Counted from the stretch's first letter, positions 9,982 to 26,480 are shown. The stretch: 64,000 bases of DNA from Candidatus Wolfebacteria bacterium RIFOXYD12_FULL_48_21 (GCA_001793945.1 MGIW01000006.1:202239-266238); one strand, 5' to 3'. Notes: a model not told the origin generated them from the letters alone. Numbers and translations: made by a program.

Positions 9982-9995
9982 GTAAATATAAACCT

Positions 9996-10784: not shown

Positions 10785-11103
10785 TATAACGCATGGCTTC
10801 GAGCGCGATTGTAAACGACTGGCCAAGCGGTATCGTTCACTCGAGGAAGACATTGGCGAATTAAAGAAGGTGCTTGCGTTATTCCCGGCCGGAAACGGAA
10901 AGCATTTTGCGACCCTTGTTGAAACGGATATGGTTAAGATTATTAAAGCGCGTTTGTTTTGCCGGTACTTGAAAGGATCTTCATTGCGCGTTATCTATGC
11001 CTATAACGAAGAAGCGGAACAAATCAATTTTATCGAGTTGTATTTTAAGGGCGATCAAGAAACGGAAAATGAAGCGAGAATCAAAGCATATCTAAAGGGA
11101 TAA
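10774..11103 (+). CDS. putative toxin partner of the Panacea antitoxin (RelE/ParE-like fold suspected)
   Basis: 109-aa ORF overlapping the antitoxin stop by 11 nt; ...RVIYAYNEEAEQINFIELYFKGDQ resembles RelE-superfamily C-terminus. Confidence 0.4.
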   Translation: MNFDITHGFERDCKRLAKRYRSLEEDIGELKKVLALFPAGNGKHFATLVETDMVKIIKARLFCRYLKGSSLRVIYAYNEEAEQINFIELYFKGDQETENEARIKAYLKG

Positions 11104-11104
11104 G

Positions 11105-11300
11105 CCCTTGTTGTCATTCCGAGTGAAGCCGTACTCGGCGCAACCGAGGAATCTGTAGTAGTTACCATGTTATTAACATAATCCATGACCCAAAGGTTGT
11201 CATTCCGGACTTGCCTCGCGCTGAGCTTGTCGAAGTGATCCGGAATCCAGAGCCTGTGTCATTCCGGCGGAGGCCGGAATCCAGATTTACTATTTTTTAC
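11105..11300. repeat. cluster of MITE-like hairpin units (gtcattcc...ggaatccag family)
   Basis: ttgtcattccgagtgaagccgtactcggcgcaaccgaggaatctg; gtcattccggacttgcc...atccggaatccag; gtcattccggcggaggccggaatccag. Confidence 0.7.
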
Positions 11301-11313
11301 TGCTAAACCACCC

Positions 11314-11339
11314 ATGACCCAAGACGAAGCATTTGCAAT
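11314..11339 (+). repeat. direct repeat copy of the first 26 nt of the helicase gene (atgacccaagacgaagcatttgcaat)
   Basis: Identical to 12170-12195; ~20 nt upstream also similar. Confidence 0.8.
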
Positions 11340-11393
11340 TTTGTACGAGTAATAAACTCGATACTCTGTATCAGATATTATATAATAAAGCTT

Positions 11394-11879
11394 ATGGTGA
11401 ATAATTATGCGTTTATTGATAGCCAAAATCTGAATCTTGCAATTAAAGACCAAGGATGGAATCTTGATTTTGAACGGTTCAGGATTTATTTAAAAGACAA
11501 ATATAGTGTGACAAAGGCGTTTATTTTTATTGGATATATACCAACGAATCAGCCTCTTTATACGGCTTTACAAAAATATGGATATATATTGGTATTCAAA
11601 CCTACGCTTGAATTGCCTGATGGTAGAGTGAAGGGGAATGTTGATGCCGAAATGGTATTGCATACCATGATCGAATATTCGAATTATGAAAAAGCATTAA
11701 TTGTGACGGGGGATGGTGATTTTTATTGTCTAGTGGATCACTTAAAAAACAATGGGAAATTAGCCGGAGTAATGATACCCAATGGGAAGAAATATTCTTC
11801 ATTGCTCAGAACATTTACTGGAGATACTATTTTTATGAATAATCTCAAGGAGAAGTTGGGATATAATAAAAATATGTAA
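11394..11879 (+). CDS. NYN-domain (LabA/PIN-like) ribonuclease family protein
   Basis: AFIDSQNLNLAI...VDAEMVLHTM...ALIVTGDGDF has the acidic-residue pattern of NYN/LabA domains. Confidence 0.7.
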   Translation: MVNNYAFIDSQNLNLAIKDQGWNLDFERFRIYLKDKYSVTKAFIFIGYIPTNQPLYTALQKYGYILVFKPTLELPDGRVKGNVDAEMVLHTMIEYSNYEKALIVTGDGDFYCLVDHLKNNGKLAGVMIPNGKKYSSLLRTFTGDTIFMNNLKEKLGYNKNM

Positions 11880-12009
11880 AAAAAGAGGCATAGCCGCGGG
11901 ACGGAACCCTTTGGTTAGCCTCTCATCGTGATAGTTAAAGTATAACAATTGGTCAATATATGTCAATATAAATCAATCCCGCACCTGCGGGATTTATGCT
12001 ATTATAGGT

Positions 12010-12140
12010 ACACATTTATGACCCTCGCATTGTCATTCCCGTCCTTCGACAAGCTTAGGATAAAACTTCGAGCGGGAATCCAGAGCCTGTGTCATTCCGA
12101 GCGGAGTGGTACTCCATGTAGTCGAGGAATCTGCAGTATT
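12010..12140. repeat. MITE-like hairpin units
   Basis: cattgtcattcccgtccttcgacaagcttaggataaaacttcgagcgggaatccagagcctgtgtcattccgagcggagtggtactccatgtagtcgaggaatctgcag. Confidence 0.7.
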
Positions 12141-12169
12141 CGTAATTTTTACTACAAACCTTATTACCT

Positions 12170-13894
12170 ATGACCCAAGACGAAGCATTTGCAATCTTAA
12201 AGACCGGACGAAATGTGTTTTTGACAGGAGAGCCGGGGAGTGGCAAGTCCCACATGGTCAATCGCTATGTGGAGTATTTGCGGTCCTGCGGGGTTGAACC
12301 GTCCATTACAGCGTCCACGGGCATTGCCGCCACGCACATCGGCGGCATGACGATCCACTCGTGGAGCGGCATCGGGGTACGGACCCGGCTGACCGACCAC
12401 GACCTTGAATTGATGCTCGACAAGGACCGGCTGGTCAAGCGGCTTCGGGCCGCGCGGGTGTTGATCATCGATGAAGTTTCCATGCTTTCGGGCGACACAC
12501 TGGCGGTGGTGGAGCAGGTTTGTCGCGTCTTGCGCGACTCCATAGAGCCCTTTGGAGGGCTTCAGGTGGTCCTGGTGGGCGACTTTTTTCAACTGCCGCC
12601 CATTATGCCAAAAGCCGACCAAGAGCGTGTAAAAACGATTTCTCTCGATGGGGAAGATCAGTGGTCACCCTTTGCATTCATGGGTACGGCGTGGGCAAAA
12701 GCGGACCCGACCATCTGCTATCTGACCGAACAGCATCGGCAGGAAGACACAGAGTTTTTAAAGGCACTTTCGGCCATCCGTCGCGGGGAGGTTACCGACG
12801 AGGTGCGCGAATGTTTTGCGGGCCGGCGTGTGGAGCCCGCCGTTGCGGACGATCATACCAAACTATATACGCACAATTTCGCGGTCGATAAGCTCAACGA
12901 TGCGCGGCTCGCAAAACTGCCGGGCGAGCGGCGCGACTTCGCGATGAAGAGCGAAGGCGCCCCGACGATCGTGGAGGGGTTGAAGCGTGGATGCTTGTCG
13001 CCCGAAACACTTTCGTTGAAATTGGGGGCGAAGGTCATGTTCACCAAAAACAGCGTCGAGGGAAAGTTCGTCAACGGCACCATCGGCGAGGTGGTCGGAT
13101 TTTCGCCCGTTACGGGCTATCCGCAGATCACGATGCACAACGGCAAGACGATCGAACCCGAGTTGGGCGAATGGAGTATCTATGACGGCATGAAGATGCT
13201 TGGCATGATCAAACAAATTCCGCTTCGCCTTGCCTGGGCCATCACGGTCCACAAGAGCCAAGGCATGTCGCTCGATACTGCAATCATGGATCTTTCACAA
13301 GCGTTTGAATACGGACAGGGGTATGTCGCGCTATCACGCGTGCGTACGCTCGCGGGGTTATATCTGTTGGGGTATAACGAACGGGCACTCGAAGTGCATC
13401 CCGATGTGTTTGCGAAGGATATCCAGTTCCGCGCCGCGTCCGAAAAGGCCCGGTATGACTTCGCCGCACTCGGCGAAGAACAAATCGCCGATCTGCAACT
13501 GCAGTTCATCAACACCATCGGCGGAGCCGTGGGCATGGGCATGCAGGCGCCTGCGCCCAAGGTTTCGACCTACGACGCAACGGCCGAGCTGGTCGCGCAG
13601 AAATTGTCGGTTGCCGACATGGCAGAAAAGCGTGGCGTAACCGAAGCCACGATCATCACGCATTTAGAAAAGCTGGTTGCCAATGGAACCCTCGATCCTG
13701 CAGCCGATTTGGAATACCTAAAGCCCGAACGCCGCCGGTTCGTGACCATGCAGGCAGCACTCGAAAAGACCTATAAAAAGAAGGGGAGCATGCTATTAAC
13801 CCCCGCCCAGTCCCTCCTCGGCCCCGGGTTTACCTTTGAGGAATTGCGGGTTGCGAGGCTGTTTTTGGGGAAAACCGAAGATCCGTCATCCTGA
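12170..13894 (+). CDS. Pif1/RecD2-family ATP-dependent DNA helicase with C-terminal HTH_40-type domain
   Basis: Walker A GEPGSGKSH, Walker B LIIDEVSML, motif QHRQ; C-terminal LSVADMAEKRGVTEATIITHLEKLV helix-turn-helix module. Confidence 0.75.
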   Translation: MTQDEAFAILKTGRNVFLTGEPGSGKSHMVNRYVEYLRSCGVEPSITASTGIAATHIGGMTIHSWSGIGVRTRLTDHDLELMLDKDRLVKRLRAARVLIIDEVSMLSGDTLAVVEQVCRVLRDSIEPFGGLQVVLVGDFFQLPPIMPKADQERVKTISLDGEDQWSPFAFMGTAWAKADPTICYLTEQHRQEDTEFLKALSAIRRGEVTDEVRECFAGRRVEPAVADDHTKLYTHNFAVDKLNDARLAKLPGERRDFAMKSEGAPTIVEGLKRGCLSPETLSLKLGAKVMFTKNSVEGKFVNGTIGEVVGFSPVTGYPQITMHNGKTIEPELGEWSIYDGMKMLGMIKQIPLRLAWAITVHKSQGMSLDTAIMDLSQAFEYGQGYVALSRVRTLAGLYLLGYNERALEVHPDVFAKDIQFRAASEKARYDFAALGEEQIADLQLQFINTIGGAVGMGMQAPAPKVSTYDATAELVAQKLSVADMAEKRGVTEATIITHLEKLVANGTLDPAADLEYLKPERRRFVTMQAALEKTYKKKGSMLLTPAQSLLGPGFTFEELRVARLFLGKTEDPSS

Positions 13895-14170
13895 ACTTGT
13901 TTCAGGATCTGGGCGGGGGTCATTCCCGCGAAGGCGGGAATCCAGTATCCCCGCATTGTCATTCCGGCCTCCGAGCCGGAATCCAGTATTTGTGTCATTC
14001 CCGTGAAAACGGGAATCCAGTATCCCCGTATTGTCATACCGGCCCGTTCGACAGGCTCAGGGTAAAACTCCGGCCGGTATCCAGCGCATTGTCATTCCTG
14101 CAAAAGCAGGAATCTACTTCGCATTTTTCGCATTGTCATTCCGGCCTCCGAGCCGGAATCCATCCCCACT
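13895..14170. repeat. tandem array of about seven MITE-like hairpin units
   Basis: Units gtcattcc-[cgcgaaggcg / ggcctccgagcc / cgtgaaaacg / tgcaaaagca]-ggaatccag separated by tatccccgcatt-like linkers; preceded by tcatcctgaacttgtttcaggat hairpin. Confidence 0.8.
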
Positions 14171-14291
14171 CCATAACCGTGAAAACATGCCATTGTACGG
14201 CCACTTTTCACGGTTATGGACGCAAAACCGTGAATGATCGTTTTCGTGACGTTAGTAAAATGGTTGATGCTTTCCAATCCCTCGTACTAAC

Positions 14292-14321
14292 TTGACAGTT
14301 TATTCATGTGTACGCTATTAT
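14292..14321 (+). promoter_or_regulatory. sigma-70-like promoter TTGACA-18-TATTAT upstream of Phd/RelE pair
   Basis: TTGACA 14292-14297, TATTAT 14316-14321, overlapping gtac...gtac palindrome. Confidence 0.5.
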
Positions 14322-14327
14322 GTACAT

Positions 14328-14687
14328 ATGGATAGCAAGACAACAATTTCAATTTCCGAAGCACGGAAGAAAATATTCGATATTGCCACCGAGGTACAGG
14401 CTCCCGGTAAGCACTATACATTAACTGAAAAAGGCCGACCAAAGGCGGTTATTATGTCTGCCGAAGAGTTTGAATCGTGGACGGAGACCATGGAAATCAT
14501 GCGTGAATTTCCTGACATTAAAAAAGATATTGCCCGTGCCGAGCGGGAATATAAGAGTGGTAATTATATAACCCTTGAAGATCTCTTGGAAAAAGAGGGG
14601 TATGTGTTAGCGGGTAAGACATCTAAAAACTATGCAGTATCGGATCATTCTGCCAAAAAGCGTACAAAAGGAGCTCGAAAAGCTTGA
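14328..14687 (+). CDS. Phd/YefM-family antitoxin
   Basis: ISISEARKKIFDIATEV...HYTLTEKGRPKAVIMSAEEFESWTETMEI is the Phd/YefM fold; unusually long C-terminal extension overlapping the toxin start. Confidence 0.6.
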   Translation: MDSKTTISISEARKKIFDIATEVQAPGKHYTLTEKGRPKAVIMSAEEFESWTETMEIMREFPDIKKDIARAEREYKSGNYITLEDLLEKEGYVLAGKTSKNYAVSDHSAKKRTKGARKA

Positions 14688-14883
14688 TAAGAAGATTAGA
14701 ATGCGGGTGATTGTAACCTTGCAGGAATTAAGCAAAGATCCTTTTGCCGGGAAAAAGTTGCAAGGAGAACACGCAGGCCAGTGGTCGGTACGCGCATGGC
14801 CATATCGGGTCATCTACAGGATAAACAAAGGCGAGCTCGTTGTACTTGTTATTCGCATCGCTCATCGGCAAGGAGCGTATTAA
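14632..14883 (+). CDS. RelE/ParE-family toxin
   Basis: MQYRIILPKSVQKELEKL...YRVIYRINKGELVVLVIRIAHRQ. Confidence 0.65.
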   Translation: MQYRIILPKSVQKELEKLDKKIRMRVIVTLQELSKDPFAGKKLQGEHAGQWSVRAWPYRVIYRINKGELVVLVIRIAHRQGAY

Positions 14884-15150
14884 AAACCCCCCCGCATTGT
14901 CATTCCCGCCCATTCGTCCGCCGGCTGGCGGATCAGGGTAAACTCCGGCGGGAATCCGTGGCCTGTGTCATTCCCGTGAAAACGGGAATCCAGTATCCCC
15001 GCATTGTCATCCCGTGCTCCGACACGGGATCCAGATCATGTGTCATTCCCGTGAAAACGGGAATCCAGTATCCCCGCATTGTCATTCCGGACTTGATCCG
15101 GAATCCAGTATTTGTGTCATTCCCGTGAAAACGGGAATCCAGAGTAGAGG
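14884..15150. repeat. tandem array of MITE-like hairpin units
   Basis: gtcattcccgtgaaaacgggaatccagtatccccgcattgtcat... repeated; includes ccgccggctggcgg core hairpin. Confidence 0.8.
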
Positions 15151-15199
15151 GGAAAATGGTACCCGACCCCTTTAATGACAACAAATTATTTCTAATGCA

Positions 15200-15275
15200 A
15201 ACAGATAAGATCCCTCATCCCTGCGGGATTTTTGGTTGGTTTATAAATGGGGTGGGATTTGGTAAGATTGAGTTG
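15200..15275 (+). promoter_or_regulatory. conserved terminator+leader module (copy b): atccctgcgggatttttggttggtttataaatggggtgggatttggtaagattgagttg
   Basis: Hairpin atccc-tgc-gggat plus T-run, followed by a conserved 40-nt tail; related copies at 19725-19770, 20345-20400, 21265-21325 and a partial one at 11965-11995. Confidence 0.6.
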
Positions 15276-15299
15276 TAGTTGAGGTAGTGACGCGTTAAT

Positions 15300-15653
15300 A
15301 TGGAGAAAATCAAAGCACTTACGCAGAAAATTGTTGCATTTCGAGACGAGCGGGATTGGAAGCAATTTCATAACCCCAAAGACGAGGCGTTGTCTTTGGT
15401 TTTGGAAGCAGCTGAAGTTATGGAGCATTTTCAATGGAAATCCGCCGAAGAAATGCAAAAACATGTCACGGATCAAAAGGAGGAAATCGGAGCAGAGCTT
15501 GCAGATGTCTTTTACTGGGTTTTATTAATGAGTCATGATCTCGACATCAATATCGCAGACGCGCTGGAGAACAAAATTAAGAAAAATGCCGAGAAGTATC
15601 CTGTTGAAAAGTCAAAAGGTAGCCATGCAAAATATATCAGGATAGAAAGCTAA
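15300..15653 (+). CDS. MazG-like nucleotide pyrophosphohydrolase (short single-domain form)
   Basis: LTQKIVAFRDERDWKQFHNPKDEALSLVLEAAEVMEHFQWK...ELADVFYWVLLMSHDLDINI...ENKIKKNAEKYP matches the MazG/NTP-PPase fold. Confidence 0.7.
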   Translation: MEKIKALTQKIVAFRDERDWKQFHNPKDEALSLVLEAAEVMEHFQWKSAEEMQKHVTDQKEEIGAELADVFYWVLLMSHDLDINIADALENKIKKNAEKYPVEKSKGSHAKYIRIES

Positions 15654-15670
15654 TAATATTATTGTGATCC

Positions 15671-16462
15671 ATGCCGAGAGAAATTATCATAACAGCAGAA
15701 TACTTTAAGCAATATCGCCGACGGTTGGGGTTTGCCACTCAGGCCGGAGTTAAAAATTTTTTCGGAGCAAAGGACATCGTTCCAGGCGTAGATTTTGATT
15801 ATGTGCAGTATTTAAACGATAGACTTTACGAGATCATTGATCGTATAAATGATGCGTTAGTTGATAGTATAAAGGTTGACAATGTGGACACATTCAAGCG
15901 GGAGCATGTCGATAGGGTTTTTGAAATAATAAAAGATAATAATATTTTGCCCGTATTGAATAATCAAGGAAGGAGACCCGAGGATGTGTACTTCTCTTGG
16001 ATGAGGGGATATGTTATTTCAAATTTATTTTTAAGGGCACTGGAAAGCATATTCGGTGTCGATGCATCGACCATTGAGCTCATCGGCGACGATGATTTGC
16101 GAAGCGTGGAAACTTTTAAGCGAACGCCAAAAGCCGACTTGGAGATTAATCTCGGGGAAAGGGGGCGAATACGAATAGAAATGCAATCGGGCTTTACAGG
16201 AATCAACGACATTAAGCAACATAAAGTCCTTGAGGCAAAAAGAGTTTTTAGTGATATGGGCGTTCATACATTGGCGGTTCATTTTGACCTGTATAACGGC
16301 CAAGCCGCCTTTGTGATGCTCGATGATGTCAGTGAAGATGATGTAAATTGGATTACAAGGCAACAAATGGAGGGACAAACTGTTTTTAACATAGATCAAA
16401 ATAAATTTATCTGGAAGATTACCGAAGATCCGATCAGGTATGCAGACATAATTTTCGAGTAA
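15671..16462 (+). CDS. hypothetical protein, candidate type II restriction endonuclease partnering the C5 methyltransferase
   Basis: 263-aa ORF ending 10 nt before the MTase start; no known motif; call rests on context. Confidence 0.3.
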   Translation: MPREIIITAEYFKQYRRRLGFATQAGVKNFFGAKDIVPGVDFDYVQYLNDRLYEIIDRINDALVDSIKVDNVDTFKREHVDRVFEIIKDNNILPVLNNQGRRPEDVYFSWMRGYVISNLFLRALESIFGVDASTIELIGDDDLRSVETFKRTPKADLEINLGERGRIRIEMQSGFTGINDIKQHKVLEAKRVFSDMGVHTLAVHFDLYNGQAAFVMLDDVSEDDVNWITRQQMEGQTVFNIDQNKFIWKITEDPIRYADIIFE

Positions 16463-16471
16463 GATTTAACC

Positions 16472-17596
16472 ATGGGAAAGATTAAAGTTGTTGATTTATT
16501 TGCGGGAGTGGGGGGATTGAGCTATGGTTTTGCACATGACCCCCATTTTGAAATTGTTGCAGCAAATGAGATATTGCCGAATATGGCAAAGGCTTATTCT
16601 CTGAACCACCCTGGCGTGCGGGTTTACGCCGAGGACATCAAGGATTTTAGTGCAAAAAAAATAGAAAAAGATTTAAAAATAAAACCCTCCGAGATTGATA
16701 TTATCGTGGGCGGCCCCCCTTGTCAGGCCTATTCGACCGTCGGGAAAAGGCTTATTGGCGATCCTCGAGGGCAACTTTTTCAAGAATATTATCGAGTGCT
16801 GAAGGAATTTAATCCAAAGCTTTTTATCTTTGAAAATGTAAAAGGTCTTTTGTCGATGCAAAACGGTGAATTGTTAAAAGCAATCATTGTCTTATTCGAA
16901 TCACTCGGTTACAGGGTTCAGTATAGAGTTTTAAATGCTGCGGATTACGGAGCGCCGCAAATAAGGGAACGGATTATTATTGTCGGATCAAAATTAAAAT
17001 CCGATTTTATATATCCCAAGCAAACCCATTGTGATCCCGTTCGATTGATGGGATTAGCGGGCGCATCTTTAAAGCCTTACCTAACACTTGGAGAGGCTAT
17101 TGGCGATTTGCCTTTTATGAGAAGCGGGGCGGAGAGCTTTGAGTATGCATCGGATCCGCAGAGTGATTTTCAGAGACTTATGCGAAAAGGTTCTCCCGAC
17201 AGGCTGATGGACCATTGCGCGCCAAATAATAATGCTAAGCTGGTTAACATGATGGAGCTTTTGCCCGATGGAGGTACGCCGGAAGATTTGCCCGAGCACT
17301 TGCGGCCGACATCGGGTTTTAAAAATACCTATTGCCGCTTATGGTGGAAAAGGCCTTCGACGACAATAACTAGGAATTTAAGTACACCCTCTTCGTCGAG
17401 GTGTATTCATCCAAAAGCGCCCCGACCTTTGACGACAAGAGAGGGTGCGAGACTCCAATGCTTTCCCGACTCCTATCAATTTTTTGGTTCTCGCAGCGAT
17501 AGAAATCTTCAAATTGGGAATGCGGTCCCAACTTTTTTGGCGAGCGCTATAGCCGCAGCGATTTTAAAAAATTTTAAAGCCGAAGAGCTCATTTAA
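16472..17596 (+). CDS. DNA (cytosine-5)-methyltransferase
   Basis: Motif I DLFAGVGGLSYGF, motif IV GGPPCQAYS, motif VI ENVKGL, motif X-like GNAVP. Confidence 0.9.
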   Translation: MGKIKVVDLFAGVGGLSYGFAHDPHFEIVAANEILPNMAKAYSLNHPGVRVYAEDIKDFSAKKIEKDLKIKPSEIDIIVGGPPCQAYSTVGKRLIGDPRGQLFQEYYRVLKEFNPKLFIFENVKGLLSMQNGELLKAIIVLFESLGYRVQYRVLNAADYGAPQIRERIIIVGSKLKSDFIYPKQTHCDPVRLMGLAGASLKPYLTLGEAIGDLPFMRSGAESFEYASDPQSDFQRLMRKGSPDRLMDHCAPNNNAKLVNMMELLPDGGTPEDLPEHLRPTSGFKNTYCRLWWKRPSTTITRNLSTPSSSRCIHPKAPRPLTTREGARLQCFPDSYQFFGSRSDRNLQIGNAVPTFLASAIAAAILKNFKAEELI

Positions 17597-17717
17597 AAAT
17601 AGACGGATATTTTCTCCAAGGAAAACCGCAGCGAGATATTGGCTGTAGTAAAGGGGAAGGGAAATATGACCACCGAGATTGCCCTGATAAAAATTCTGCG
17701 GGAGGAGAAAATAACCG

Positions 17718-17987
17718 GTTACCGACATGGCAGAAAAGCGTGGCGTAACCGAAACCACGATCATCGCCCATTTGGAAAAGCTGGTTGCCAATGGAACCCT
17801 CGATCCTGCAGCCGATTTGGAATACCTAAAGCCCGAACGCCGACGATTTGTAACTATGCAAGCCGCGCTTGAAAAGACCTACAAAAAGAAGGGGAGCATG
17901 CTATTAACCCCCGCCCAGGCACTCCTTGGGCCTAGTTTTACATTTGAGGAGTTGAGGGTGGCACGGTTGTTTTTAATTACCCCGTGA
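17718..17987 (+). pseudogene. duplicated 3' fragment of the Pif1-like helicase gene (HTH_40 tail), displaced copy
   Basis: MAEKRGVTETTIIAHLEKLVANGTLDPAADLEYLKPERRRFVTMQAALEKTYKKKGSMLLTPAQALLGPSFTFEELRVARLFL is about 95% identical to helicase residues encoded at 13611-13880; lacks the helicase core. Confidence 0.75.
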
Positions 17988-18077
17988 TGAGCGGAGCAGA
18001 TTTTATGGGAGGAGAAAGAGTGGATGAGTTTTTTGAAAATACCTTTTAGCATATTTAGGTAGTTTAACAGCACCTAT

Positions 18078-18110
18078 TGACACCATTATTCATGGTGTTA
18101 TTATTAGTAT
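18078..18110 (+). promoter_or_regulatory. candidate promoter TTGACA-18-TATTAG with caccattattcatggtg palindrome
   Basis: cctattgacaccattattcatggtgttattattagtatgc just upstream of the first small HTH gene. Confidence 0.4.
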
Positions 18111-18145
18111 GCAAGTTAAAAGAAATACTTAATAAAAATAAACAC

Positions 18146-18391
18146 ATGGAAAAATCTGAGGGACTATCTGAACTTAAAGAGCTTAACAAGAAGATTGAGG
18201 TAGTGATTGCTCTGCTTCTTAAAATGTTACCTAAAGATAATCAGGGAATTTCACTTAAAGATCAAATTAAATTGTTGGATAGTCTCCATATTCGGCCAAG
18301 TGAAATAGCTGAAATTATCGGACGAACTCAGAGCTATGTGAGTAAAGAGCTTGTGTACATCCGAAAGGATAAAAAACAAAAAATTAACTAA
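18146..18391 (+). CDS. small HTH protein, paralog 1 of 4
   Basis: MEKSEGLSELKELNKKIEVVIALLL...SEIAEIIGRTQSYVSKEL (sigma-70 region 4 / LuxR-like HTH pattern). Confidence 0.5.
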   Translation: MEKSEGLSELKELNKKIEVVIALLLKMLPKDNQGISLKDQIKLLDSLHIRPSEIAEIIGRTQSYVSKELVYIRKDKKQKIN

Positions 18392-18403
18392 TAATATATC
18401 TAT

Positions 18404-18619
18404 ATGAGTGAAAATGAAATTTTGTCATCAGTGTCAAAAAAGCTAGGAGTTTTAATTGCTTTGAATTTGATGACGCTTAATAGCAAGGCAACTGTAATTG
18501 ACAATGTTGCTCTACTTGATCGTTTTGGTTTATCTACTACTGAAATTTCGGAAATATTAAATACCTCTAAAGGTACGGTCGATGTTACGAAAAGTAGAAT
18601 TAAAAAAGGAAAAAAATAA
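18404..18619 (+). CDS. small HTH protein, paralog 2 of 4
   Basis: ...LGVLIALNLMTLNSKATVIDNVALLDRFGLSTTEISEILNTSKGTV. Confidence 0.5.
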   Translation: MSENEILSSVSKKLGVLIALNLMTLNSKATVIDNVALLDRFGLSTTEISEILNTSKGTVDVTKSRIKKGKK

Positions 18620-18623
18620 TAAT

Positions 18624-18806
18624 ATGGAAAGTAAAGAACTTATTAAAGAGTTAAAATCTTTAAATAAAACAATAAAAGATCAGTTCATCTTCCTTTTATG
18701 CCGAGAAGGTTATACTAAAGAACAAATTAGGATAATTATCGGAAGTATTGATAATACTAGGATAACCCAGATTAGTTCTGGGCTTAAAAAAATAAATAAA
18801 AAATAA
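18624..18806 (+). CDS. small HTH protein, paralog 3 of 4
   Basis: MESKELIKELKSLNKTIKDQFIFLLCREGYTKEQIRIIIGSIDNTRITQISSGL. Confidence 0.45.
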   Translation: MESKELIKELKSLNKTIKDQFIFLLCREGYTKEQIRIIIGSIDNTRITQISSGLKKINKK

Positions 18807-18808
18807 TC

Positions 18809-18979
18809 ATGACGAAACAGAAAGAGCAAAAGTTGGATACTTTGGAACAGATCAAGCGACTACTCATTCTTGCCCTAGTGCATCAAGGTGTCCAAGGGAA
18901 GGATGTTGCTGCGGTGCTCGGCGTTGATCCGGCGGTTGTCAGCCGTATGGTTCCAACTCGGCAAATAAAGAAGAAATAA
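18809..18979 (+). CDS. small HTH protein, paralog 4 of 4 (56 aa, below ORF-track cutoff)
   Basis: Own translation: MTKQKEQKLDTLEQIKRLLILALVHQGVQGKDVAAVLGVDPAVVSRMVPTRQIKKK; same architecture as the other three. Confidence 0.45.
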   Translation: MTKQKEQKLDTLEQIKRLLILALVHQGVQGKDVAAVLGVDPAVVSRMVPTRQIKKK

Positions 18980-18983
18980 TGAT

Positions 18984-19709
18984 ATGGCCCGCCCTCGCAT
19001 CCTTGATTTAAAACTAATGGTAAAAATTGCCAAAAAACTTGGCAAAAAGGATACTATTTCTATAAATAAGATGGTAAGTAGAAAAGCATCAAAACTTGGC
19101 ATATCTGCCGAGTCGGCTTTGATACTTTTAGCGAAGGAGTATGGGATAGGTGCATCTACATATCAGCGTAATCTTGGTGTTACGAAACAAGCGGAGGTGC
19201 GAGATGCATTGCCATCTATTTTTATACAAGCGCGGGCGATGAGTCATGAGAATAAGACAAAAAATAATAGCGAGGTAAAACCGTCTATTAGTAAAAAAAC
19301 AGCACTGAAGCTTACAATAGAGTATTTAATCGAGGATCAGGAATTACGAAGTAGATGTCAGGATATTCTTATGGCTTCTGCAAATTTTGATAGACCTATT
19401 AACCAAGCAACTTTAGTACTTGAGGATAGAATAAGGAAAAAAGCAAAACCTCTTACGAAAATGGTTGGGGAAAATTTAGTGGGGTATGCTTTTAATGAAG
19501 AAATTTCCAAAACAGTTCTTCGCGTTGCGAGTAATGATGCTGATGATCAGCGTGGATTTGCACAAATTTTGAGAGGTATTGTACCTGCATTTCGAAATAA
19601 AACACATCATCATATTGTTGAACATTTTTCTAGAGAAGAGGCAATCAGAGTTTGTGGGTTTATCGATGTTTTGTTACGAGTTGTAGATAATTCTGTAAAA
19701 ATAAAATAA
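18984..19709 (+). CDS. hypothetical protein with C-terminal CHP02391 (Hypoth_Ymh)-like domain
   Basis: C-terminal ...GFAQILRGIVPAFRNKTHHHIVEHFSREEAIRVCGFIDVLLRVV resembles the TIGR02391 family seen in defence contexts; assignment tentative. Confidence 0.35.
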   Translation: MARPRILDLKLMVKIAKKLGKKDTISINKMVSRKASKLGISAESALILLAKEYGIGASTYQRNLGVTKQAEVRDALPSIFIQARAMSHENKTKNNSEVKPSISKKTALKLTIEYLIEDQELRSRCQDILMASANFDRPINQATLVLEDRIRKKAKPLTKMVGENLVGYAFNEEISKTVLRVASNDADDQRGFAQILRGIVPAFRNKTHHHIVEHFSREEAIRVCGFIDVLLRVVDNSVKIK

Positions 19710-19779
19710 GCTTAATAGTCACTCCTGCGGGATTTTTGGTTGGTTTCTAAATAAGGTGGAATTTGGTAAAATTTTAAAA

Positions 19780-20280
19780 ATGCCGTATAAAGATCCAGCA
19801 AAATTTAAGGAGTTAAATTTTTTGTTTAAAGAAATAATAGACCGGATTATGATCGCTGATATCTTGCGATTAAAAGAACTTGACCCACTATTAAGATTTC
19901 ATGGTTCCGAATATTATGGTGGACGCGGGACGACTCCCATGGTTCTTTATATTTTTGTTTGCATGGAATTTTTGGGTTCTTTAATAATGGAAGTTGAAGC
20001 TAAGGGTTCCGGTAGTACACAGAAAAAAGTTTTGGCGTATATGGAGATGACTTTTGGTCCCGATATGGATTTGTTTATTACACACAGAAGGTTGTTTATT
20101 AAATTTTATCGCAACGCATTAGCTCACGGATTTTTTCCTGGAGGAGGGGGTATAAGTCGGGGCGGCTCGCAAGTATTAGGAGTAACAGCGAGAGGGGATT
20201 TAATTCTTGACGCTGATATTTTGCAGATATGTTTGTTAGGTCGGTGTGGCGTTTTAAACGGCTATTTCGTTCTCGGATAG
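19780..20280 (+). CDS. hypothetical protein
   Basis: ORF preceded by conserved module copy c; the ORF-track start at 19756 is a GTG inside the module, so the ATG at 19780 is used; no motif recognised. Confidence 0.35.
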   Translation: MPYKDPAKFKELNFLFKEIIDRIMIADILRLKELDPLLRFHGSEYYGGRGTTPMVLYIFVCMEFLGSLIMEVEAKGSGSTQKKVLAYMEMTFGPDMDLFITHRRLFIKFYRNALAHGFFPGGGGISRGGSQVLGVTARGDLILDADILQICLLGRCGVLNGYFVLG

Positions 20281-20420
20281 GCTTGACTACATATCCTTAT
20301 TTGGTAAATCAAGTTGTCGATAGATTTTTAAAAATACAGCAGAGATAACCCTGATCCTTTATAATTTATAAATGGGTCAGAATTTGGTAAGATTGAGTTG
20401 AAATGGGGTGTAATTATTAA

Positions 20421-21257
20421 ATGGAGAATACAATCGTGGAAATGTTAATACCGCATAATGATCCGAATGGACTTCGGATTATTAAGCTTGCTGGGTGGAT
20501 CGGAAGGGCATTTGTTATTCCTCGTGCAGATATTAAAGAGATAAAAGCATTAAAGGAGGCGAGTCATCCTGCTGTGTATTTTCTTATTGGAGAAGAGGAT
20601 GGTAAGGCAACTGTTTACATAGGACAAACTGATAATTTTGAGCGTCGACTTAATCAGCAGGTGGTAGCAAAAAATTATTGGGATATCGCCATGGTATTTA
20701 CCGGCGAATTGGATATTGATGTTCAATATTTAGAATATATTTGCACAAAAGAAGCAAGAGAGTCTGGTAGATATGAAATAAAAAATGCAACAGGAACGCC
20801 TGGGCGGAATATATCTGATTTTCAACGAGTTGCGAATAATAAGTTTTTTGAAAATATAAAGTTCGTTGTCTCATTGTTAAGTTACCCGATTTTCCAGGAA
20901 GTTCCGAAGGAGCAGCAGGCTGATAAAATCTATCACCTTAAACTTTCGAGGAGTAATGATGTTTTAGGAAGGGGTGCACTGCTTTCAAGCGGTGAGTTTG
21001 TAGTATACGCAGGATCTATGGCTCGAATAGTCGAAGCAAAAAGCTTTCAGGGAAGGAAGGGGTCTGGGCTTCGCAAACAACTTATCGATGAAGGTGTTTT
21101 GCAGAATCAAGATGGTATTTCTTATATTTTTACAAAAGATTATATTTTTGGAAGTCCAAGCGCAGCTGGTTATGTTATCACTGGTATGTCGACAAATGGG
21201 TGGACGAGCTGGAAAGACAAGAATGGAAAGACCCTCGATGAGAATGTGAGGAAATAA
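20421..21257 (+). CDS. GIY-YIG nuclease domain + DUF4357 protein
   Basis: PAVYFLIGEEDGKATVYIGQTDNFERRLNQ (GIY-YIG); C-terminal YIFTKDYIFGSPSAAGYVITGMSTNGWTSWKDKNGKTL (DUF4357-like). Confidence 0.65.
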   Translation: MENTIVEMLIPHNDPNGLRIIKLAGWIGRAFVIPRADIKEIKALKEASHPAVYFLIGEEDGKATVYIGQTDNFERRLNQQVVAKNYWDIAMVFTGELDIDVQYLEYICTKEARESGRYEIKNATGTPGRNISDFQRVANNKFFENIKFVVSLLSYPIFQEVPKEQQADKIYHLKLSRSNDVLGRGALLSSGEFVVYAGSMARIVEAKSFQGRKGSGLRKQLIDEGVLQNQDGISYIFTKDYIFGSPSAAGYVITGMSTNGWTSWKDKNGKTLDENVRK

Positions 21258-21363
21258 CTTGTAAAAATCCCGCATTCCTGCGTGATTTTTAGTTGGTTTA
21301 TAAATAGGGTGGAATTTGGTAAGCTTGGGAGTAATAAAGGTTACCCATGAAATTATTGGAATT

Positions 21364-23763
21364 ATGAGTCTCTACGAGAAATTACAAAAAGCTACGAGTG
21401 AAGAGGATGTTAAAGATATCTATATAAAAGCACTTGGGCTAAAGGAATATCAGAAAAATCTTATAGATATTCAAACGAAAGAAGTTTGGTTCGAAGCCAA
21501 GCAGAATTCTAAGCTGTCGACTTATGCCATGTTCACCCAGCTACTGCATTATGTGCAGGAGGCACTGGATAAGGGAGGATATGTTCCTCCATTTTTGGCC
21601 GTAATTGATACGCAAAAGGCAGCTATAATGAAAAGTGTCGATATTATTCCCTTTCTCGAAAAGAAAACTATTAAGTGGGGCAAGTCAGCAAGTAGTTATA
21701 CACAGGAAGCTCTCGATATTGTATCTGCGTATATTGGCACGCACTTTGTTTCTTTTAAGATTGAAACGCACGAGGAAGAATTTATACAAGCAATTAAAGG
21801 CGCTATTAAAAATGGCGATATTATTAGAACTCAAATTACCCCAGACAATTTAAAACAAGTTTTCGATAAGTGGGTACAGATGATCGGGCGAGAAATAAGG
21901 GATGTTAAAGAGGAGGATTATGTGCTGCTATTTTTTGCTGATATTATGCATGACGGTACTGTTTCTACGCATAATGATCTTCCTGCAGAGTTATTACACA
22001 AAAATAATGCTCCGGTATTTAGTCTGGGCGGGAAAATTTATGAACTCGGAAATAAAGAAGGTTATCGACAATTCTGGGCAATTTATCACAAACCGCCAAA
22101 AGCAGAATATCGCGATTATTTATTAGAACGGAGAGACAGTCTAATCCCAATTGATGAAAGAAGTTTTAAAGGTGCCTATTACACACCGCTCCAAGTGGTG
22201 GATAAGGCTTATGATAAACTTCTAGAAACCTTAGGAGATAATTGGCAAAAAGAGTATATCGTATGGGATATGTGTTGTGGCGTTGGAAATTTAGAGGTTA
22301 AACATAGTAATCCTCGCAATATTTACATGTCTACATTAGACAGTGAAGATGTGGATGTGATGAAAGCTACTAAAACCTGCGTAGCGGCGCAGCGGTTTCA
22401 ATACGATTATTTGAATGATGATATTGCTGATGATGGTAAAATAGATTACACACTAACTAATAAAGTGCCTGAAGGTTTACGCAAGGCTATTGCTGACGGC
22501 AAAAAGATTTTAGTGCTGATCAATCCGCCATATGCGGAAGCTATGAGTGCTGATAATATATCAAATAATGAAAAGGCGGAAAGTAAGTTAGGCGTTTCTA
22601 AGACTCGGGTTGCGTCAATAATGGATACTCAGGGTTATGCAACTAGGGAGTTATTCGTGCAATTTCTCGTGAGATTATCGCTTGAGATACCAAGTGCTAC
22701 CTTGGCGATGTTTAGCAAATTAAAATATGTAAATGCCCCTAATTTTGAGAAATTTAGAGAAACCTGGAATGCGAAATATAAGGGTGGTTTTATCGTGCAC
22801 AGCAAGGCTTTTGATGGATTAAAGGGTGATTTCCCAATTGGCTTTTTAGTGTGGCAAACAGATCAAAATGCAAAAGTGAAAACACCGATAATTGAATTAG
22901 TGGCTGAAGTGCTGGATAAAAATGCTAATCCAATTGGGGAGAAATATTTTTATAATCTATCAAACGACAAGCTTCTTGGAGATTGGATAAAAAGACCCAA
23001 AGCAAATAAGATCGATGTTGTGCCATTAAAAAATACAGTTACTCCAGCTACGGTTAGTAAAGATTTACGAGGAACAAAATGGTCCGATAATGCAATTGGT
23101 TGCATGATTTTTCAGGGTAGTGATGTTCAACATTCAAAAACAACCGCAATACTGTCCTCGGGTTTTGGTAGTGCGGGGAGTATATTTATCAATCCGGAAA
23201 ATCTTTGGCAAGCCTCGATCATTTTTGCTGTTCGCCGTCTCATTAAGCCTACTTGGGTGAACGATCGGGATCAATTTTTGCAACCAACAGAACCACTTAC
23301 CGATGAGTTTAAAAATGATTGTCTTGTATGGATGCTTTTTAATGGAAGTAATCTTACCGCCAGCGCAAATGATCTCGAGTGGAATGGTAAGAAATGGTCA
23401 ATTGTTAATCATTTTATCCCGTATACCGAGGAAGATGTAAACGCTCCAGAACGCTTTGAATCAGATTTTATGGTGCGGTATTTAGCTGGTAAGCAGTTCT
23501 CGCCTGAAGCGGTCGCAGTATTGAGAGAAGGAAAGTTGTTGTGGCAAGCATATTTTGCGAATACAGACACCAGAACGGTTCGAGATGAATTGATGTTGAA
23601 TCGTCCTGATGTGGGGTGGTATCAAATCAGAAAAGCGATCCAAGCGCGAAATGCGATTAGTGATTCTTCTCCAGTTAGTTTAGAATCTTTTGAAAAGGAG
23701 TACGGCGCTTTAACCGAAAAGCTAAAACCTCAAGTATATGCGTTAGGATTTTTAAAAATCTAA
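21364..23763 (+). CDS. Type IIG restriction-modification enzyme (MmeI-like: N-terminal PD-ExK nuclease + gamma-class N6-adenine MTase + target-recognition domain)
   Basis: N-terminal D-x8-E-A-K (LIDIQTKEVWFEAKQ) like the MmeI catalytic triad; MTase motif IV VLINPPYAEA; large C-terminal region. Confidence 0.7.
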   Translation: MSLYEKLQKATSEEDVKDIYIKALGLKEYQKNLIDIQTKEVWFEAKQNSKLSTYAMFTQLLHYVQEALDKGGYVPPFLAVIDTQKAAIMKSVDIIPFLEKKTIKWGKSASSYTQEALDIVSAYIGTHFVSFKIETHEEEFIQAIKGAIKNGDIIRTQITPDNLKQVFDKWVQMIGREIRDVKEEDYVLLFFADIMHDGTVSTHNDLPAELLHKNNAPVFSLGGKIYELGNKEGYRQFWAIYHKPPKAEYRDYLLERRDSLIPIDERSFKGAYYTPLQVVDKAYDKLLETLGDNWQKEYIVWDMCCGVGNLEVKHSNPRNIYMSTLDSEDVDVMKATKTCVAAQRFQYDYLNDDIADDGKIDYTLTNKVPEGLRKAIADGKKILVLINPPYAEAMSADNISNNEKAESKLGVSKTRVASIMDTQGYATRELFVQFLVRLSLEIPSATLAMFSKLKYVNAPNFEKFRETWNAKYKGGFIVHSKAFDGLKGDFPIGFLVWQTDQNAKVKTPIIELVAEVLDKNANPIGEKYFYNLSNDKLLGDWIKRPKANKIDVVPLKNTVTPATVSKDLRGTKWSDNAIGCMIFQGSDVQHSKTTAILSSGFGSAGSIFINPENLWQASIIFAVRRLIKPTWVNDRDQFLQPTEPLTDEFKNDCLVWMLFNGSNLTASANDLEWNGKKWSIVNHFIPYTEEDVNAPERFESDFMVRYLAGKQFSPEAVAVLREGKLLWQAYFANTDTRTVRDELMLNRPDVGWYQIRKAIQARNAISDSSPVSLESFEKEYGALTEKLKPQVYALGFLKI

Positions 23764-23847
23764 TCATTTTAACCTTAGGAGGTGGTCGTGGTATTGCCAG
23801 AGATAATATAATTAACAAAGGAAATTGATAAAAATTAATATTTAATT

Positions 23848-24330
23848 ATGGACCCACAAAACAAAGATTTTATAAAGCATCTTATTAAGGGGAAGATTGC
23901 AGAGATTATATTTGAGCAGATGTTTCGAGAATCGGGGAAGTATACCATCCTTCGTTCTGGTTATGAATACACGCTTCCTGAGCTTGCGCAGTACCAACAT
24001 ATTGCTGAGATTAAAGCCGTTATGGAAAATATTCGTAATGCACCCGATTTCATACTTGTTTCCCAGGATAAAACCGAAGTACATTTGGTTGAAGTTAAAT
24101 ATCGCGCTAACCGATATACAAATGAAGTAAATGAGCTTGCTACTAATCTGCTCGTACGATGGAATCCTTCTTGGCTTTTTGTCGCTTGCCCTGATGGATT
24201 CTTCTTTGAGCCGTGTAATACGATTGCCAATAAAGAAGGAGAGATTGGTCCGCTTTTTGAAAAATGGGTAGCCCCTGAAATTCAAGCTGAGTATTTAAAA
24301 CTACTTAATGAATTCGAGCCGAAGGGGTGA
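23848..24330 (+). CDS. PD-(D/E)xK nuclease-like protein
   Basis: NAPDFILVSQDKTEVHLVEVKYR gives PD...E-V-K spacing typical of the restriction-endonuclease fold. Confidence 0.4.
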   Translation: MDPQNKDFIKHLIKGKIAEIIFEQMFRESGKYTILRSGYEYTLPELAQYQHIAEIKAVMENIRNAPDFILVSQDKTEVHLVEVKYRANRYTNEVNELATNLLVRWNPSWLFVACPDGFFFEPCNTIANKEGEIGPLFEKWVAPEIQAEYLKLLNEFEPKG

Positions 24331-24345
24331 TATTTGATATAAATA

Positions 24346-24963
24346 ATGCTTGATATTGAAAATCTTCTCAAGGAATTATCTAAGAAGCGCCCGGTCTTTC
24401 ATTCGGAGGCTGATTTTCAGCATGCGCTTGCTTGGGGAATTCATGAAGCTTATCCGGACTATAAAATTCGACTGGAGATTCGGCCCGGGAATTCCAAAGA
24501 AAAGGAATATCTTGATATATTCATTGAATATAAAGGGATAAATTGTTTTATCGAATTAAAATATAAAACTAAGAAATATAGCGTAGAATTTGATCGTGAA
24601 AATTTTTCTCTCGCAGGACATAGTGCTCATGATATTGGGAGATACGATTTTATTAAAGATATTCAGCGGGTAGAAAAATTTTTGGGGAAAGATGACATGG
24701 CCGAGGGTTATGCGATTCTGTTGACCAATGACAGGGCTTATTGGTCCGAATCGTATCGCATGACCGTCGATAAGGATTTTCGTGTTCATGAGGGTAGAAT
24801 TTTACAGGGTCGCCTTGTATGGGATCAAAGGGCATCAGAGGGTACAAGGAAGGGGAGAAACAAAGAGCTTCATTTACGAGGGACTTATGAGTGTAATTGG
24901 AATGATTTTTCAAATATTGATTCTGAGAGTTTTCGATACTTGTTAATTAAGGTTAGAAATTAA
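24346..24963 (+). CDS. PD-(D/E)xK nuclease-like protein (second, unrelated in sequence)
   Basis: YLDIFIEYKGINCFIELKYK gives D...E-L-K; upstream acidic residues HSEADFQHALAWGIHEAYPD. Confidence 0.35.
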   Translation: MLDIENLLKELSKKRPVFHSEADFQHALAWGIHEAYPDYKIRLEIRPGNSKEKEYLDIFIEYKGINCFIELKYKTKKYSVEFDRENFSLAGHSAHDIGRYDFIKDIQRVEKFLGKDDMAEGYAILLTNDRAYWSESYRMTVDKDFRVHEGRILQGRLVWDQRASEGTRKGRNKELHLRGTYECNWNDFSNIDSESFRYLLIKVRN

Positions 24964-24978
24964 TGCTATAATTACCCC

Positions 24979-25560
24979 ATGAACCTCAAACCCCTCATAC
25001 AACTGACCATTGCAATTGCAATAGCCGAACTCGCGGGGATCATTGGGTCATTTTTTACTGTGGGTGCTATAGATACTTGGTATGCGGGGATCGTTAAGCC
25101 TGCGTGGAATCCGCCCGCTTGGGTGTTTGGGCCGGTGTGGGTGGTGTTGTATGCGATGATGGGGGTTGCGGTTTGGTTGGTGTGGAGGAAGATGGATTCC
25201 CGGCGCATTGCAAGGAGCGGGGAGATCCTGAAACAAGTTCAGGATGACAATGCAAGCGGGAATGACAAACTAATAAAGGCAGCACTCTGGGTTTTTGGGG
25301 TGCAGTTGGGTTTGAACGCCCTGTGGTCCACCATCTTCTTTGGCTTGCACAGCCCGGGATGGGCTTTTGTAGAGATCGTTCTGTTGTGGGCCGCCATCGT
25401 CGGTACGATCGGCGTGTTTTGGCGCATCTCGAAGCCTGCGGCGTTGCTGTTGGTCCCTTACATTTTGTGGGTCAGTTTTGCAGGGTATTTGAACTACACC
25501 ATTTGGGATTTGAACAAGATCGACGAGCAAATGGTGTTTTGCACTGCCGATGCCATGTAA
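24979..25560 (+). CDS. tspO: TspO/MBR tryptophan-rich sensory protein, carrying an in-frame MITE-derived insertion
   Basis: KPAWNPPAWVFGPVWVVLYAMMG...WSTIFFG...LVPYILWVSFAGYLN; the inserted segment SRRIARSGEILKQVQDDNASGNDKLIK is encoded by atcctgaaacaagttcaggatgacaatgcaagcgggaatgacaa. Confidence 0.8.
   Translation: MNLKPLIQLTIAIAIAELAGIIGSFFTVGAIDTWYAGIVKPAWNPPAWVFGPVWVVLYAMMGVAVWLVWRKMDSRRIARSGEILKQVQDDNASGNDKLIKAALWVFGVQLGLNALWSTIFFGLHSPGWAFVEIVLLWAAIVGTIGVFWRISKPAALLLVPYILWVSFAGYLNYTIWDLNKIDEQMVFCTADAM
25222..25268 (+). mobile_element. MITE-family element inserted in-frame within tspO
   Basis: gatcctgaaacaagttcaggatgacaatgcaagcgggaatgacaa matches the intergenic copies at 30130-30175 and 13895-13925. 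Confidence 0.7.
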
Positions 25561-25711
25561 TGCCCGGACGGAACATTCGTAGGCCGCACCGGCCCAAACT
25601 GCGAGTTCCAATGCCCTTGAATTCCCCCCCCCATTTTTCTCATCTAACCCATCTAATCTAATTCATCCAACCCACCCAACCAACCCATTCAACCCTACCC
25701 CACAAAAATGC

Positions 25712-25750
25712 TTAATAATATTGCTATAGCAATATTATTAAGCGTTTTCT
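25712..25750. repeat. perfect palindrome gcttaataatattgctatagcaatattattaagc (copy 1)
   Basis: 17-bp arms; identical copy at 26446-26480; the two bracket the 25789-26418 gene. Confidence 0.8.
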
Positions 25751-25788
25751 ATAATGAATATAATACACATGCGCATGAAGTGTGAAAT

Positions 25789-26418: not shown

Positions 26419-26445
26419 TATTTATAGTGTACGCAAGGAATTAAA

Positions 26446-26480
26446 AACGCTTAATATTATTGCTATAGCAATATTATTAA
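26446..26480. repeat. perfect palindrome gcttaatattattgctatagcaatattattaagc (copy 2)
   Basis: See copy 1. Confidence 0.8.

Follow-up and report, generated by a model that had tools for sequence, protein, structure and literature searches.

A repeated unit of about 60 nt, made up of a hairpin with a T-run and a promoter-like tail, stands in front of four gene cassettes in a defence island of Candidatus Wolfebacteria bacterium RIFOXYD12_FULL_48_21, a member of the Candidate Phyla Radiation (CPR/Parcubacteria), and copies of the same unit precede unrelated genes at the same chromosomal locus in several other Wolfebacteria lineages. In the loci compared across these genomes the unit is confined to this hotspot, and homology between alternative islands breaks off at its edges. 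The window analysed here is a stretch of 64,000 nucleotides (64 kb; GCA_001793945.1 MGIW01000006.1:202239-266238). We consider it probable that the unit is a composite of a terminator and an extended -10 promoter which also serves as a homology patch for the exchange of cassettes, similar to the promoter-early stem-loop (PeSL) regulatory cassettes of T4-like phages.

The core of the unit, GGTGGAATTTGGTA, was searched for in a 19-nt form, GGTGGAATTTGGTAAGATT, with up to three mismatches allowed. This gave four matches in the window, all on the + strand (15251, 19755, 20376 and 21308), compared with an expectation of 0.02 from shuffled sequence. The half containing the hairpin and the T-run, CCTGCGGGATTTTTGGTTGGTTT, was found three times (15220, 19724 and 21277; 0.00 expected), and an nhmmer profile built from the four copies recovered only these four in the 64 kb, with E-values from 5e-20 to 4e-12, the next-best match in the window having an E-value of 1.4. 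Repeat finding also recovered the unit as two families, D5 and D6. Core, half-unit and profile searches thus agree that the repeat upstream of four genes, which had been reported in the initial annotation of this stretch, is real, and all four copies are co-oriented with the genes they precede.

The four copies, here called units A to D, differ in completeness. Unit A (15207-15280, + strand) contains a weak hairpin (15210-15233) and a T-run, a -35-like TTTATA (15240-15245), a 17-nt spacer ending in TGG and the -10 hexamer TAAGAT (15263-15268), from which 31 nt lead to the ATG of a MazG-like gene at 15300. Unit B (19711-19784, +) retains only the right hairpin arm and the T-run (19724-19738), followed by TTTCTA (19744-19749) and TAAAAT (19767-19772), and the ATG at 19780 lies 7 nt past this hexamer, a spacing of the leaderless type. 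Unit C (20365-20402, +), in front of the GIY-YIG/DUF4357 gene, consists of the promoter half only (TTTATA 20365-20370, TAAGAT 20388-20393, 27 nt to the ATG at 20421), and the lack of a hairpin at this copy, which had been pointed out before, is borne out. Unit D (21264-21337, +) begins with a good hairpin, AAAAATCCCGCA-ttcc-TGCGTGATTTTT (21262-21291), and continues with TTTATA (21297-21302) and TAAGCT (21320-21325), 38 nt upstream of the ATG at 21364. The hairpin initially described at the start of the copies is therefore well formed in D, weak in A, deprived of its left arm in B and absent from C; the distance from tail to start codon, originally given as 10-45 nt, is 7-38 nt if measured from the -10 hexamer. 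Two start codons of the open reading frame (ORF) track, GTG 19756 and TTG 21316, do lie inside the unit as had been proposed, with ATG 19780 and ATG 21364 as plausible starts, and gene callers applied to identical contigs show a disagreement of the same kind. What had been regarded as a partial copy at 11965-11995 turned out to be a lone hairpin with a unit-type stem, AATCCCGCA-cc-TGCGGGATT (11975-11994, no strand assigned), which lacks the tail and is not detected by the profile.

The island lies between a PIF1-like helicase gene with a C-terminal HTH_40 domain (12170-13894, +) and a TspO/MBR gene (24979-25560, +). The same locus was compared in two close relatives, MGIT01000001.1 (RIFOXYB1_FULL_54_12) and the complete genome CP011209.1 (GW2011_GWB1_47_1), and in a 57-kb contig found by scanning metagenomes for the core (L006 joined to L009, the same sequence as L005, L008 and L010), which was used in reverse complement and is referred to as R. 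Positions 3376-14884 and 24963-31834 of the window are syntenic with the two flanks of this contig (Ga0208958_1000336 / MGIT01000001.1) and 82-95% identical to them. The R island, which fills approximately 10 kb between ParE and TspO, is entirely different from that of the window, and no protein match between the two has an E-value below 0.004. It encodes NYN, HNH and ParB-like proteins, a Dam-type methyltransferase, small orphans, a GHKL ATPase and a 901-aa MmeI-like protein, and the unit is present in it five times, on each occasion immediately before a gene. In CP011209.1, the helicase and the right-flank genes are about 1.1 kb apart, with neither an island nor a unit between them.

More lineages were found by means of helicase homologues that are 78-84% identical. 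Six other lineages fill the hotspot with different defence genes, and five of these six carry the unit before unrelated genes. Copies occur in L026 (Vsr, Dcm, HATPase, MazG, an SLFN-like helicase and RNase H), in L027 (M16 peptidase, HNH, NERD and an N6 methyltransferase), in L029 (DUF5343, a HEPN protein, HNH, an N4/N6 methyltransferase and MjaI) and in L033, where a restriction-modification (RM) cluster is located by a second TspO copy; they are absent from L031 (Dcm, HinP1I and Vsr). The locus thus has the characteristics of a defence hotspot, with variable defence content between conserved core genes, and it is empty in some genomes. Because the unit precedes unrelated genes at this locus in five or more other lineages of Wolfebacteria, its copies are not the product of a single recent tandem duplication.

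In about 554 kb of fetched loci, all profile matches with E<1e-3 fall in the hotspot or in the L033 RM cluster abutting it, with a single exception, a short match at 1623-1646 in L007, a 1.9-kb contig from Trout Bog Lake (24-25 nt exact, TATAAATGGGGTGGAATTTGGTAA). The latter contig comes from a different environment and is too short for its true relationship to be judged. In L033, a lineage of the ACD_81 type, TspO is found on both sides of the helicase (8875-9945 and 12680-13753), with the RM cluster upstream of the first copy, which suggests that the hotspot has been rearranged or duplicated in this lineage. Copies are thus restricted to the island within the 64 kb, whereas across genomes they are restricted to the hotspot in several lineages, and this confinement suggests an element specific for the locus and the lineage, as opposed to one spread over the genome. 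A strict 30-nt degenerate pattern gave no match in genome contigs, but it missed even MGIT01000001.1 with its five copies, its 3' end being too specific. In viral contigs the strict pattern gave 0 matches and a relaxed 20-nt core gave 2, which is about the number expected by chance; there was no similarity around these two matches, and we found no evidence for a phage origin of the unit.

Fourteen copies from several genomes were aligned on the invariant ATTTGGTA, and their consensus reads (A)AAATCCCGCA-n4-TGCGGGATTTTT-GGTTGG-TTTATA-AATGGGGTGGAATTTGG-TAAGAT. The 5' half contains the hairpin (AAAATCCCGCA-n4-TGCGGGATTTT), followed by the T-run and accompanied by an A-tract on the other flank; this palindrome has a stem of 6-13 bp and a loop of 3-4 nt, and 87.5% of the stem cells are paired, compared with 32-53% if the partners are slid. 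Folding was strong for D, L027a, L027b and L029a (-12.6 to -20.2 kcal/mol, z from -3.4 to -5.7), with D at -12.6 kcal/mol and z -3.4, and weaker for A (-10.5 kcal/mol, z -0.9), R3 and R4. A stem plus T-run as expected of a terminator is found in D, L027a, L027b, L029a, R3 and R4 (-8.8 to -20.2 kcal/mol), and not in B, C, R1, R2 and R5. The best-conserved part of the unit is the non-palindromic tail. Rfam covariance models recognised no family and yielded only two sub-threshold chance matches (E 0.7-0.9); a structured RNA or leader was rejected on these grounds and because conservation stops before the expected start of the transcript.

In the tail, TTTATA (also TTTCTA or TTTCAA) is followed by the 17-nt spacer ending in TGG and by the -10 hexamer. 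The segment GGTGGRATTTGGTA is nearly invariant among the 14 copies, and a hexamer of the form TAnnnT is kept in 12 of them (TAAGAT, TAAAAT, TAAGCT, TAGGAT or TAAACT), all of which show the TGG directly before the hexamer that is typical of the extended -10 form. The remaining two are L029b, a degenerate copy, and L033a, which has TATACT one base downstream after TGA. Similarity between the copies collapses 5-10 nt past the hexamer, which is where transcription should begin; the tail therefore lies upstream of the transcript and does not include a transcribed leader, and the earlier proposal of a conserved leader was not confirmed. The tail reads as a sigma-70 extended -10 promoter, and host genes appear to use the same form: TGCTATAAT is found 6 nt before the ATG of the TspO gene, ATTTGGTATACT 6 nt before that of a host gene encoding a 430-aa protein, and a -10 box 6-7 nt before the ATG of the Phd, RelB, NYN and ExoX genes. 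Cassettes A, C and D would have leaders of 27-38 nt; the spacing between hexamer and ATG in cassette B (7 nt) and in R1, the first cassette of the relative (5 nt), fits that of leaderless host genes. Motifs of the sigma-54 and extracytoplasmic function (ECF) types were rejected by eye, the GG/GC spacing being satisfied in copy D only. Many host genes (ATG at 24979, 28064, 29383, 14328, 27435 and 11394) have a -10 box 6-7 nt upstream and no Shine-Dalgarno sequence, suggesting that leaderless mRNAs are widespread in this Wolfebacteria genome.

Comparison of islands showed that homology ends at the edges of the unit. Between R and L029, an HNH gene together with the unit that follows it shows 86% identity over 608 nt, and this homology stops right after the -10 hexamer, where a ParB-like gene follows in R and the N4/N6 methyltransferase gene in L029. 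In L027 the same HNH gene begins approximately 10 nt after a unit, and the gene that comes after it is a different one and has no unit. A MazG-like gene is preceded by a unit in two separate islands, where its neighbours are not the same. A variant with the same strain background (L001) differs from the window at 13 positions, all of them within 15226-17293 and thus in cassette A, whereas 924 nt on the left and the island's last 7.6 kb show 0 differences each; in addition, there is a 334-nt indel, the end of which coincides exactly with the left edge of unit A. At this edge, the two left-most differences agree with the variant TGCGTGATTTTTTG of other copies (R2/D type), so that unit A of L001 is a chimeric unit beside a separately evolving cassette. 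Units are 80-93% identical across genomes, as they are within one genome, compared with 72-84% for the core DNA of the more distant relatives. These comparisons are consistent with recombination through the unit.

These observations can be combined in the following model. The 5' half of the unit would act as a Rho-independent terminator which closes the upstream cassette, and the 3' half as a sigma-70-type extended -10 promoter (TTTATA, 17 nt, TGG-TAAGAT) which drives the next one, with transcription starting 5-10 nt past the hexamer and giving rise to leaderless mRNA in some cases. With a terminator half joined to a promoter half, each defence cassette would be an insulated and self-expressed transcription unit. 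Since some 60 nt are common to many unrelated cassettes in the hotspot, the unit might also represent a portable homology patch, through which the general recombination of the host could insert, delete or replace cassettes and leave their neighbours undamaged. The repeated terminator-plus-expression module postulated in the initial annotation is supported on sequence, and so is its portability at cassette boundaries, as indicated by the breaks in homology at the unit edges.

Several points weigh against this model. The L031 island exists without any unit, and the HNH gene also occurs in a Yonathbacteria island and in one other lineage where there is no unit; the unit thus does not travel with its cargo across phyla and, being confined to the hotspot in the loci compared, appears to be neither genome-wide nor cargo-bound but specific for a locus and a lineage. 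The hairpin is absent or decayed in B, C, R1, R2 and R5, so termination cannot be universal, and covariation in the stem is sparse and does not exceed that in shuffle controls. The two hexamers match the sigma-70 consensus at 8/12 positions and were not flagged by a simple consensus scan, and the spacer AATGGGGTGGAATT is conserved beyond the need of a plain promoter, which hints at an additional binding factor. The evidence for a role in recombination comes from three or four informative junctions and one strain variant, and crossovers may simply be more visible where conserved DNA meets unrelated DNA.

The main rival explanation takes up the over-conserved spacer: the tail, especially GGTGGRATTTGGTA and the spacer, would be bound by a host regulator or an alternative sigma factor that switches all cassettes together, and conservation would result from protein binding. 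Such co-regulation is compatible with a promoter and would replace the role of the homology patch. Besides a -35/-10 spacer conserved far beyond the requirement of sigma-70, it can point to candidate DNA-binding proteins which flank the hotspot in every lineage (the HTH_40 part of the helicase, a PaaX_M protein and an S24 peptidase); any common factor would have to be encoded in the core genome, because the two alternative islands share no protein, and a common regulator encoded in the islands was rejected for the same reason. However, none of these candidates has been linked to the motif, an operator-type dyad or direct-repeat symmetry is lacking (TTTATAAA is palindromic in some copies only), the host gene for the 430-aa protein has ATTTGGTATACT as an ordinary -10 region, and the breakpoints at the unit edges are left unexplained. 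We therefore regard co-regulation as possible but rather doubtful. Alternatively, the unit might be nothing but a good local terminator and promoter that was duplicated or co-inherited with the cassettes and plays no part in recombination, boundaries coinciding with it merely because no other conserved DNA lies between unrelated genes. The unit shared by R and L029 is indeed no better conserved than the adjacent HNH gene (86% over 608 nt), and the unit-free island of L031 is in line with this explanation. On the other hand, units beside unrelated genes are 80-93% identical while core DNA is at 72-84%, in L001 a chimeric unit borders a cassette that has diverged separately, and an island with nothing else in common with the window contains at least five repeats. 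Passive copying thus seems unlikely to account for the data.

It is very unlikely, though conceivable, that the unit is the recognition site of a recombinase-free gene-capture system specific to these CPR bacteria, in which the PIF1-type helicase that is always adjacent, with its HTH_40 tail, whose 3' end has been duplicated repeatedly in the islands, would act on the unit. The unit would supply a hairpin and a non-template strand rich in G-runs (GGTTGG...GGGGTGG...TTTGG), the helicase would there favour template switching or break-induced insertion as new cassettes come in, and helicase and terminator-promoter repeat together would, under that same very unlikely assumption, form a functional analogue of an integron. 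We give hardly any credence to a site of a dedicated recombinase, whether attC-like, as suggested by the initial annotation, or Xer/dif-like. Co-oriented unrelated cassettes with a repeat of about 60 nt and an inverted repeat between them are reminiscent of integrons, as are several copies in which the left hairpin arm differs and the right arm is conserved. But tyrosine and serine recombinases were looked for without success in all islands, in their flanks over approximately 10 kb and in the larger ORFs of the entire window, and the search for an integrase or other recombinase among island and flank proteins of window and relatives alike was negative. A regex scan found no RYYYAAC (R'')...GTTRRRY (R') pair at any unit, and the combination of a 6-13-bp stem, a 3-4-nt loop and a T-run is that of a terminator and not of a bipartite attC or an 11-6-11 dif site. 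Moreover, the hairpin-less copies C, R1 and L026 still mark cassette starts, and the conserved part is the non-palindromic promoter half. Without recombinase, R boxes and bipartite palindrome, the analogy to attC fails on its defining features; a dif/Xer-like site was also rejected by sequence inspection because of arm and spacer geometry and of the uniform orientation. Least probable of all, in our opinion, are remnant ends of miniature inverted-repeat transposable elements (MITEs) or insertion sequences (IS) scattered in the island. The neighbourhood is rich in short palindromes (ATTGTCATTCC, 15 versus 1.9 expected), but the units lack terminal inverted repeats and target duplications, they are always in one orientation and directly upstream of a gene, and their layout is that of a terminator plus a promoter.

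Among known systems, the composite terminator-promoter unit favoured here most resembles the PeSLs, for which promoter and terminator activity as well as excised mini-circles have been shown experimentally in T4-like phages (Arbiol et al. 2010, PMC2839356; Comeau et al. 2014, PMC4122927). Both are composite intergenic motifs of about 60-100 nt in which a terminator stem-loop is combined with a sigma-70-like promoter; both recur in front of accessory genes that are unrelated to one another and accumulate in a hyperplastic or hypervariable region (4-5 per island here), and in both cases indels and replacements between close relatives start or end at the motif, although here in few cases. No dedicated recombinase is known for either, and each flanked gene would be an insulated transcription unit. 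In contrast to PeSLs, the unit is found in the chromosome of a CPR bacterium and not in a phage, shares no sequence similarity with them, always has its stem-loop upstream of the -35 element (PeSLs show five arrangements), has a predicted promoter of a modest extended -10 type instead of a very strong early one, and is associated with defence and RM genes. By this comparison, the unit is an analogue of PeSLs and not a member of the phage family. Integron cassette arrays include clusters of attC sites lacking integron integrases (CALINs) and sedentary arrays with uniform repeats, such as the Vibrio cholerae repeats (VCRs) of Vibrio. They resemble the present islands in that co-oriented, unrelated cassettes of one to three genes are separated by a repeated element with an inverted repeat and constitute strain-variable reservoirs of adaptive genes, whereas here there is no IntI, no attI with common promoter (Pc) and no R''/L''-L'/R' architecture, and the conserved part is not a palindrome. 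In addition, units carry their own predicted -35 and -10 elements, and integron cassettes are mostly promoterless and depend on a common Pc.

Core defence hotspots (cDHS) of Pseudomonas aeruginosa (PMC10250203) and hotspots of P2/P4 elements (PMC9122126) also occupy a fixed position between core genes, contain varied defence systems and are sometimes empty. The position here is that between the PIF1-helicase and TspO genes, and the organism differs in being an ultra-small CPR bacterium. To our knowledge, cDHS and P2/P4 hotspots have not been described as having a shared internal terminator-promoter repeat. Phage morons, which are likewise autonomous transcription units added to a conserved backbone, have no shared conserved flanking sequences (PMC2839356), whereas the flanks are the conserved element here. 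This sets the unit apart from morons. The pdif sites of Acinetobacter plasmids are XerC/XerD sites of 11-6-11 geometry in alternating orientation, which bound modules including toxin-antitoxin and resistance genes by short repeats without a recombinase encoded in the module; the present units, by contrast, are all direct and terminator-like. A literature search, which was incomplete, found no paper on such a unit in defence islands or CPR genomes.

How defence islands are assembled, and how new systems are expressed without disturbing their neighbours, is poorly understood, and for most hotspots known so far the conserved genes on their flanks are all that defines them. In this hotspot of a tiny CPR genome, a connector of about 60 nt appears to combine termination, initiation and a handle for recombination, a logic so far documented for the hyperplastic regions of T4-like phages. 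What is new is that modular shuffling of the PeSL type would also operate in a cellular genome, at a defence hotspot of an ultra-small bacterium, the functional steps being deduced from sequence. If correct, cassette-style exchange without a dedicated recombinase would also take place in cellular genomes, and the unit would provide both a simple sequence tag by which Wolfebacteria metagenomes could be mined for defence and orphan genes and a compact, naturally insulated expression unit. We know of no promoters characterised in the Wolfebacteria lineage, and the unit would then be its first candidate promoter/terminator pair.

The island of the window has a GC content of about 32-42% compared with 46-57% in the flanks, which indicates that the cassettes were imported, and it also holds Phd/ParE genes. 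According to Pfam and PADLOC, cassette A (15300-17596, +) comprises three genes, which encode the MazG-like protein (15300-15653), an uncharacterised 263-aa protein, perhaps a restriction enzyme (15671-16462), and a C5 cytosine DNA methyltransferase (16472-17596), all on the + strand. Cassette B (19780-20280, +) encodes a 166-aa protein with no family match, and cassette C (20421-21257, +) the GIY-YIG/DUF4357 protein, which belongs to the PADLOC candidate defence family PDC-S14. Cassette D (21364-24963, +) encodes a 799-aa protein (21364-23763, +) followed by unknown proteins of 160 and 205 aa. The designation of the 799-aa protein as Type IIG could not be established, as it shows only weak matches to an adenine methyltransferase region, and structure annotation against the PDB found no sequence relative with a solved structure.

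Directly after the Dcm methyltransferase gene of cassette A there is a vsr remnant (17593-17726), which is 69% identical to the Vsr gene of L031 and is truncated by a duplicated helicase fragment. This fragment (17709-17974, +) is a copy of the last approximately 266 nt of the helicase gene (13601-13866, the HTH_40 part), to which it is 88% identical; it keeps an 86-aa ORF at 17727-17987 and splits the island into two accretion blocks. Extra helicase 3' fragments are also found in three other lineages (R 10560-10747, L027 5693-5845, L031 11655-11699). These fragments look like the result of repeated insertion with long target duplication, or of Campbell-type integration at the 3' end of the helicase gene, although no integrase was seen. 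The island also encodes four tandem paralogous small HTH proteins (18146-18979; 81, 71, 74 and 56 aa; weak matches to Sigma70_r4_2 and HTH_23), followed by a Hypoth_Ymh/HEPN-like protein (18984-19709). The promoter of these genes is a canonical TTGACA-16-TATTAT at 18077 and not the unit, and together they might form a small regulatory or abortive-infection module.

Palindromes resembling repetitive extragenic palindromic (REP) sequences or MITEs (CGCATTGTCATTCC-n-GGAATCCAG) are arranged in tandem pairs of about 75 nt around the helicase and Phd/ParE genes. They form clusters at 11100-11290, 12010-12140, 13900-14170 and 14890-15145, with scattered copies at 7109, 25259, 27327, 30118 and 36195, and it is the 11-mer ATTGTCATTCC that accounts for the 15 occurrences mentioned above. 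The strain variant L001 lacks the whole block between ParE and unit A. A second region that varies among Wolfebacteria genomes lies downstream of tRNA-Ser (5447-5533), up to about 12000, and contains genes for DUF2178, cupredoxin, HTH-SocA/Panacea antitoxin-like and NYN proteins; no integrase was found in it. TspO has a length of 193 aa in the window and of 196 aa in the close relative, compared with 338-357 aa in more distant Wolfebacteria (loci compared: L027 10488-11558 and L029 16835-17884). The alignment of the TspO region with the relative breaks at 25204-25294, where a segment resembling the palindromic repeats is located.

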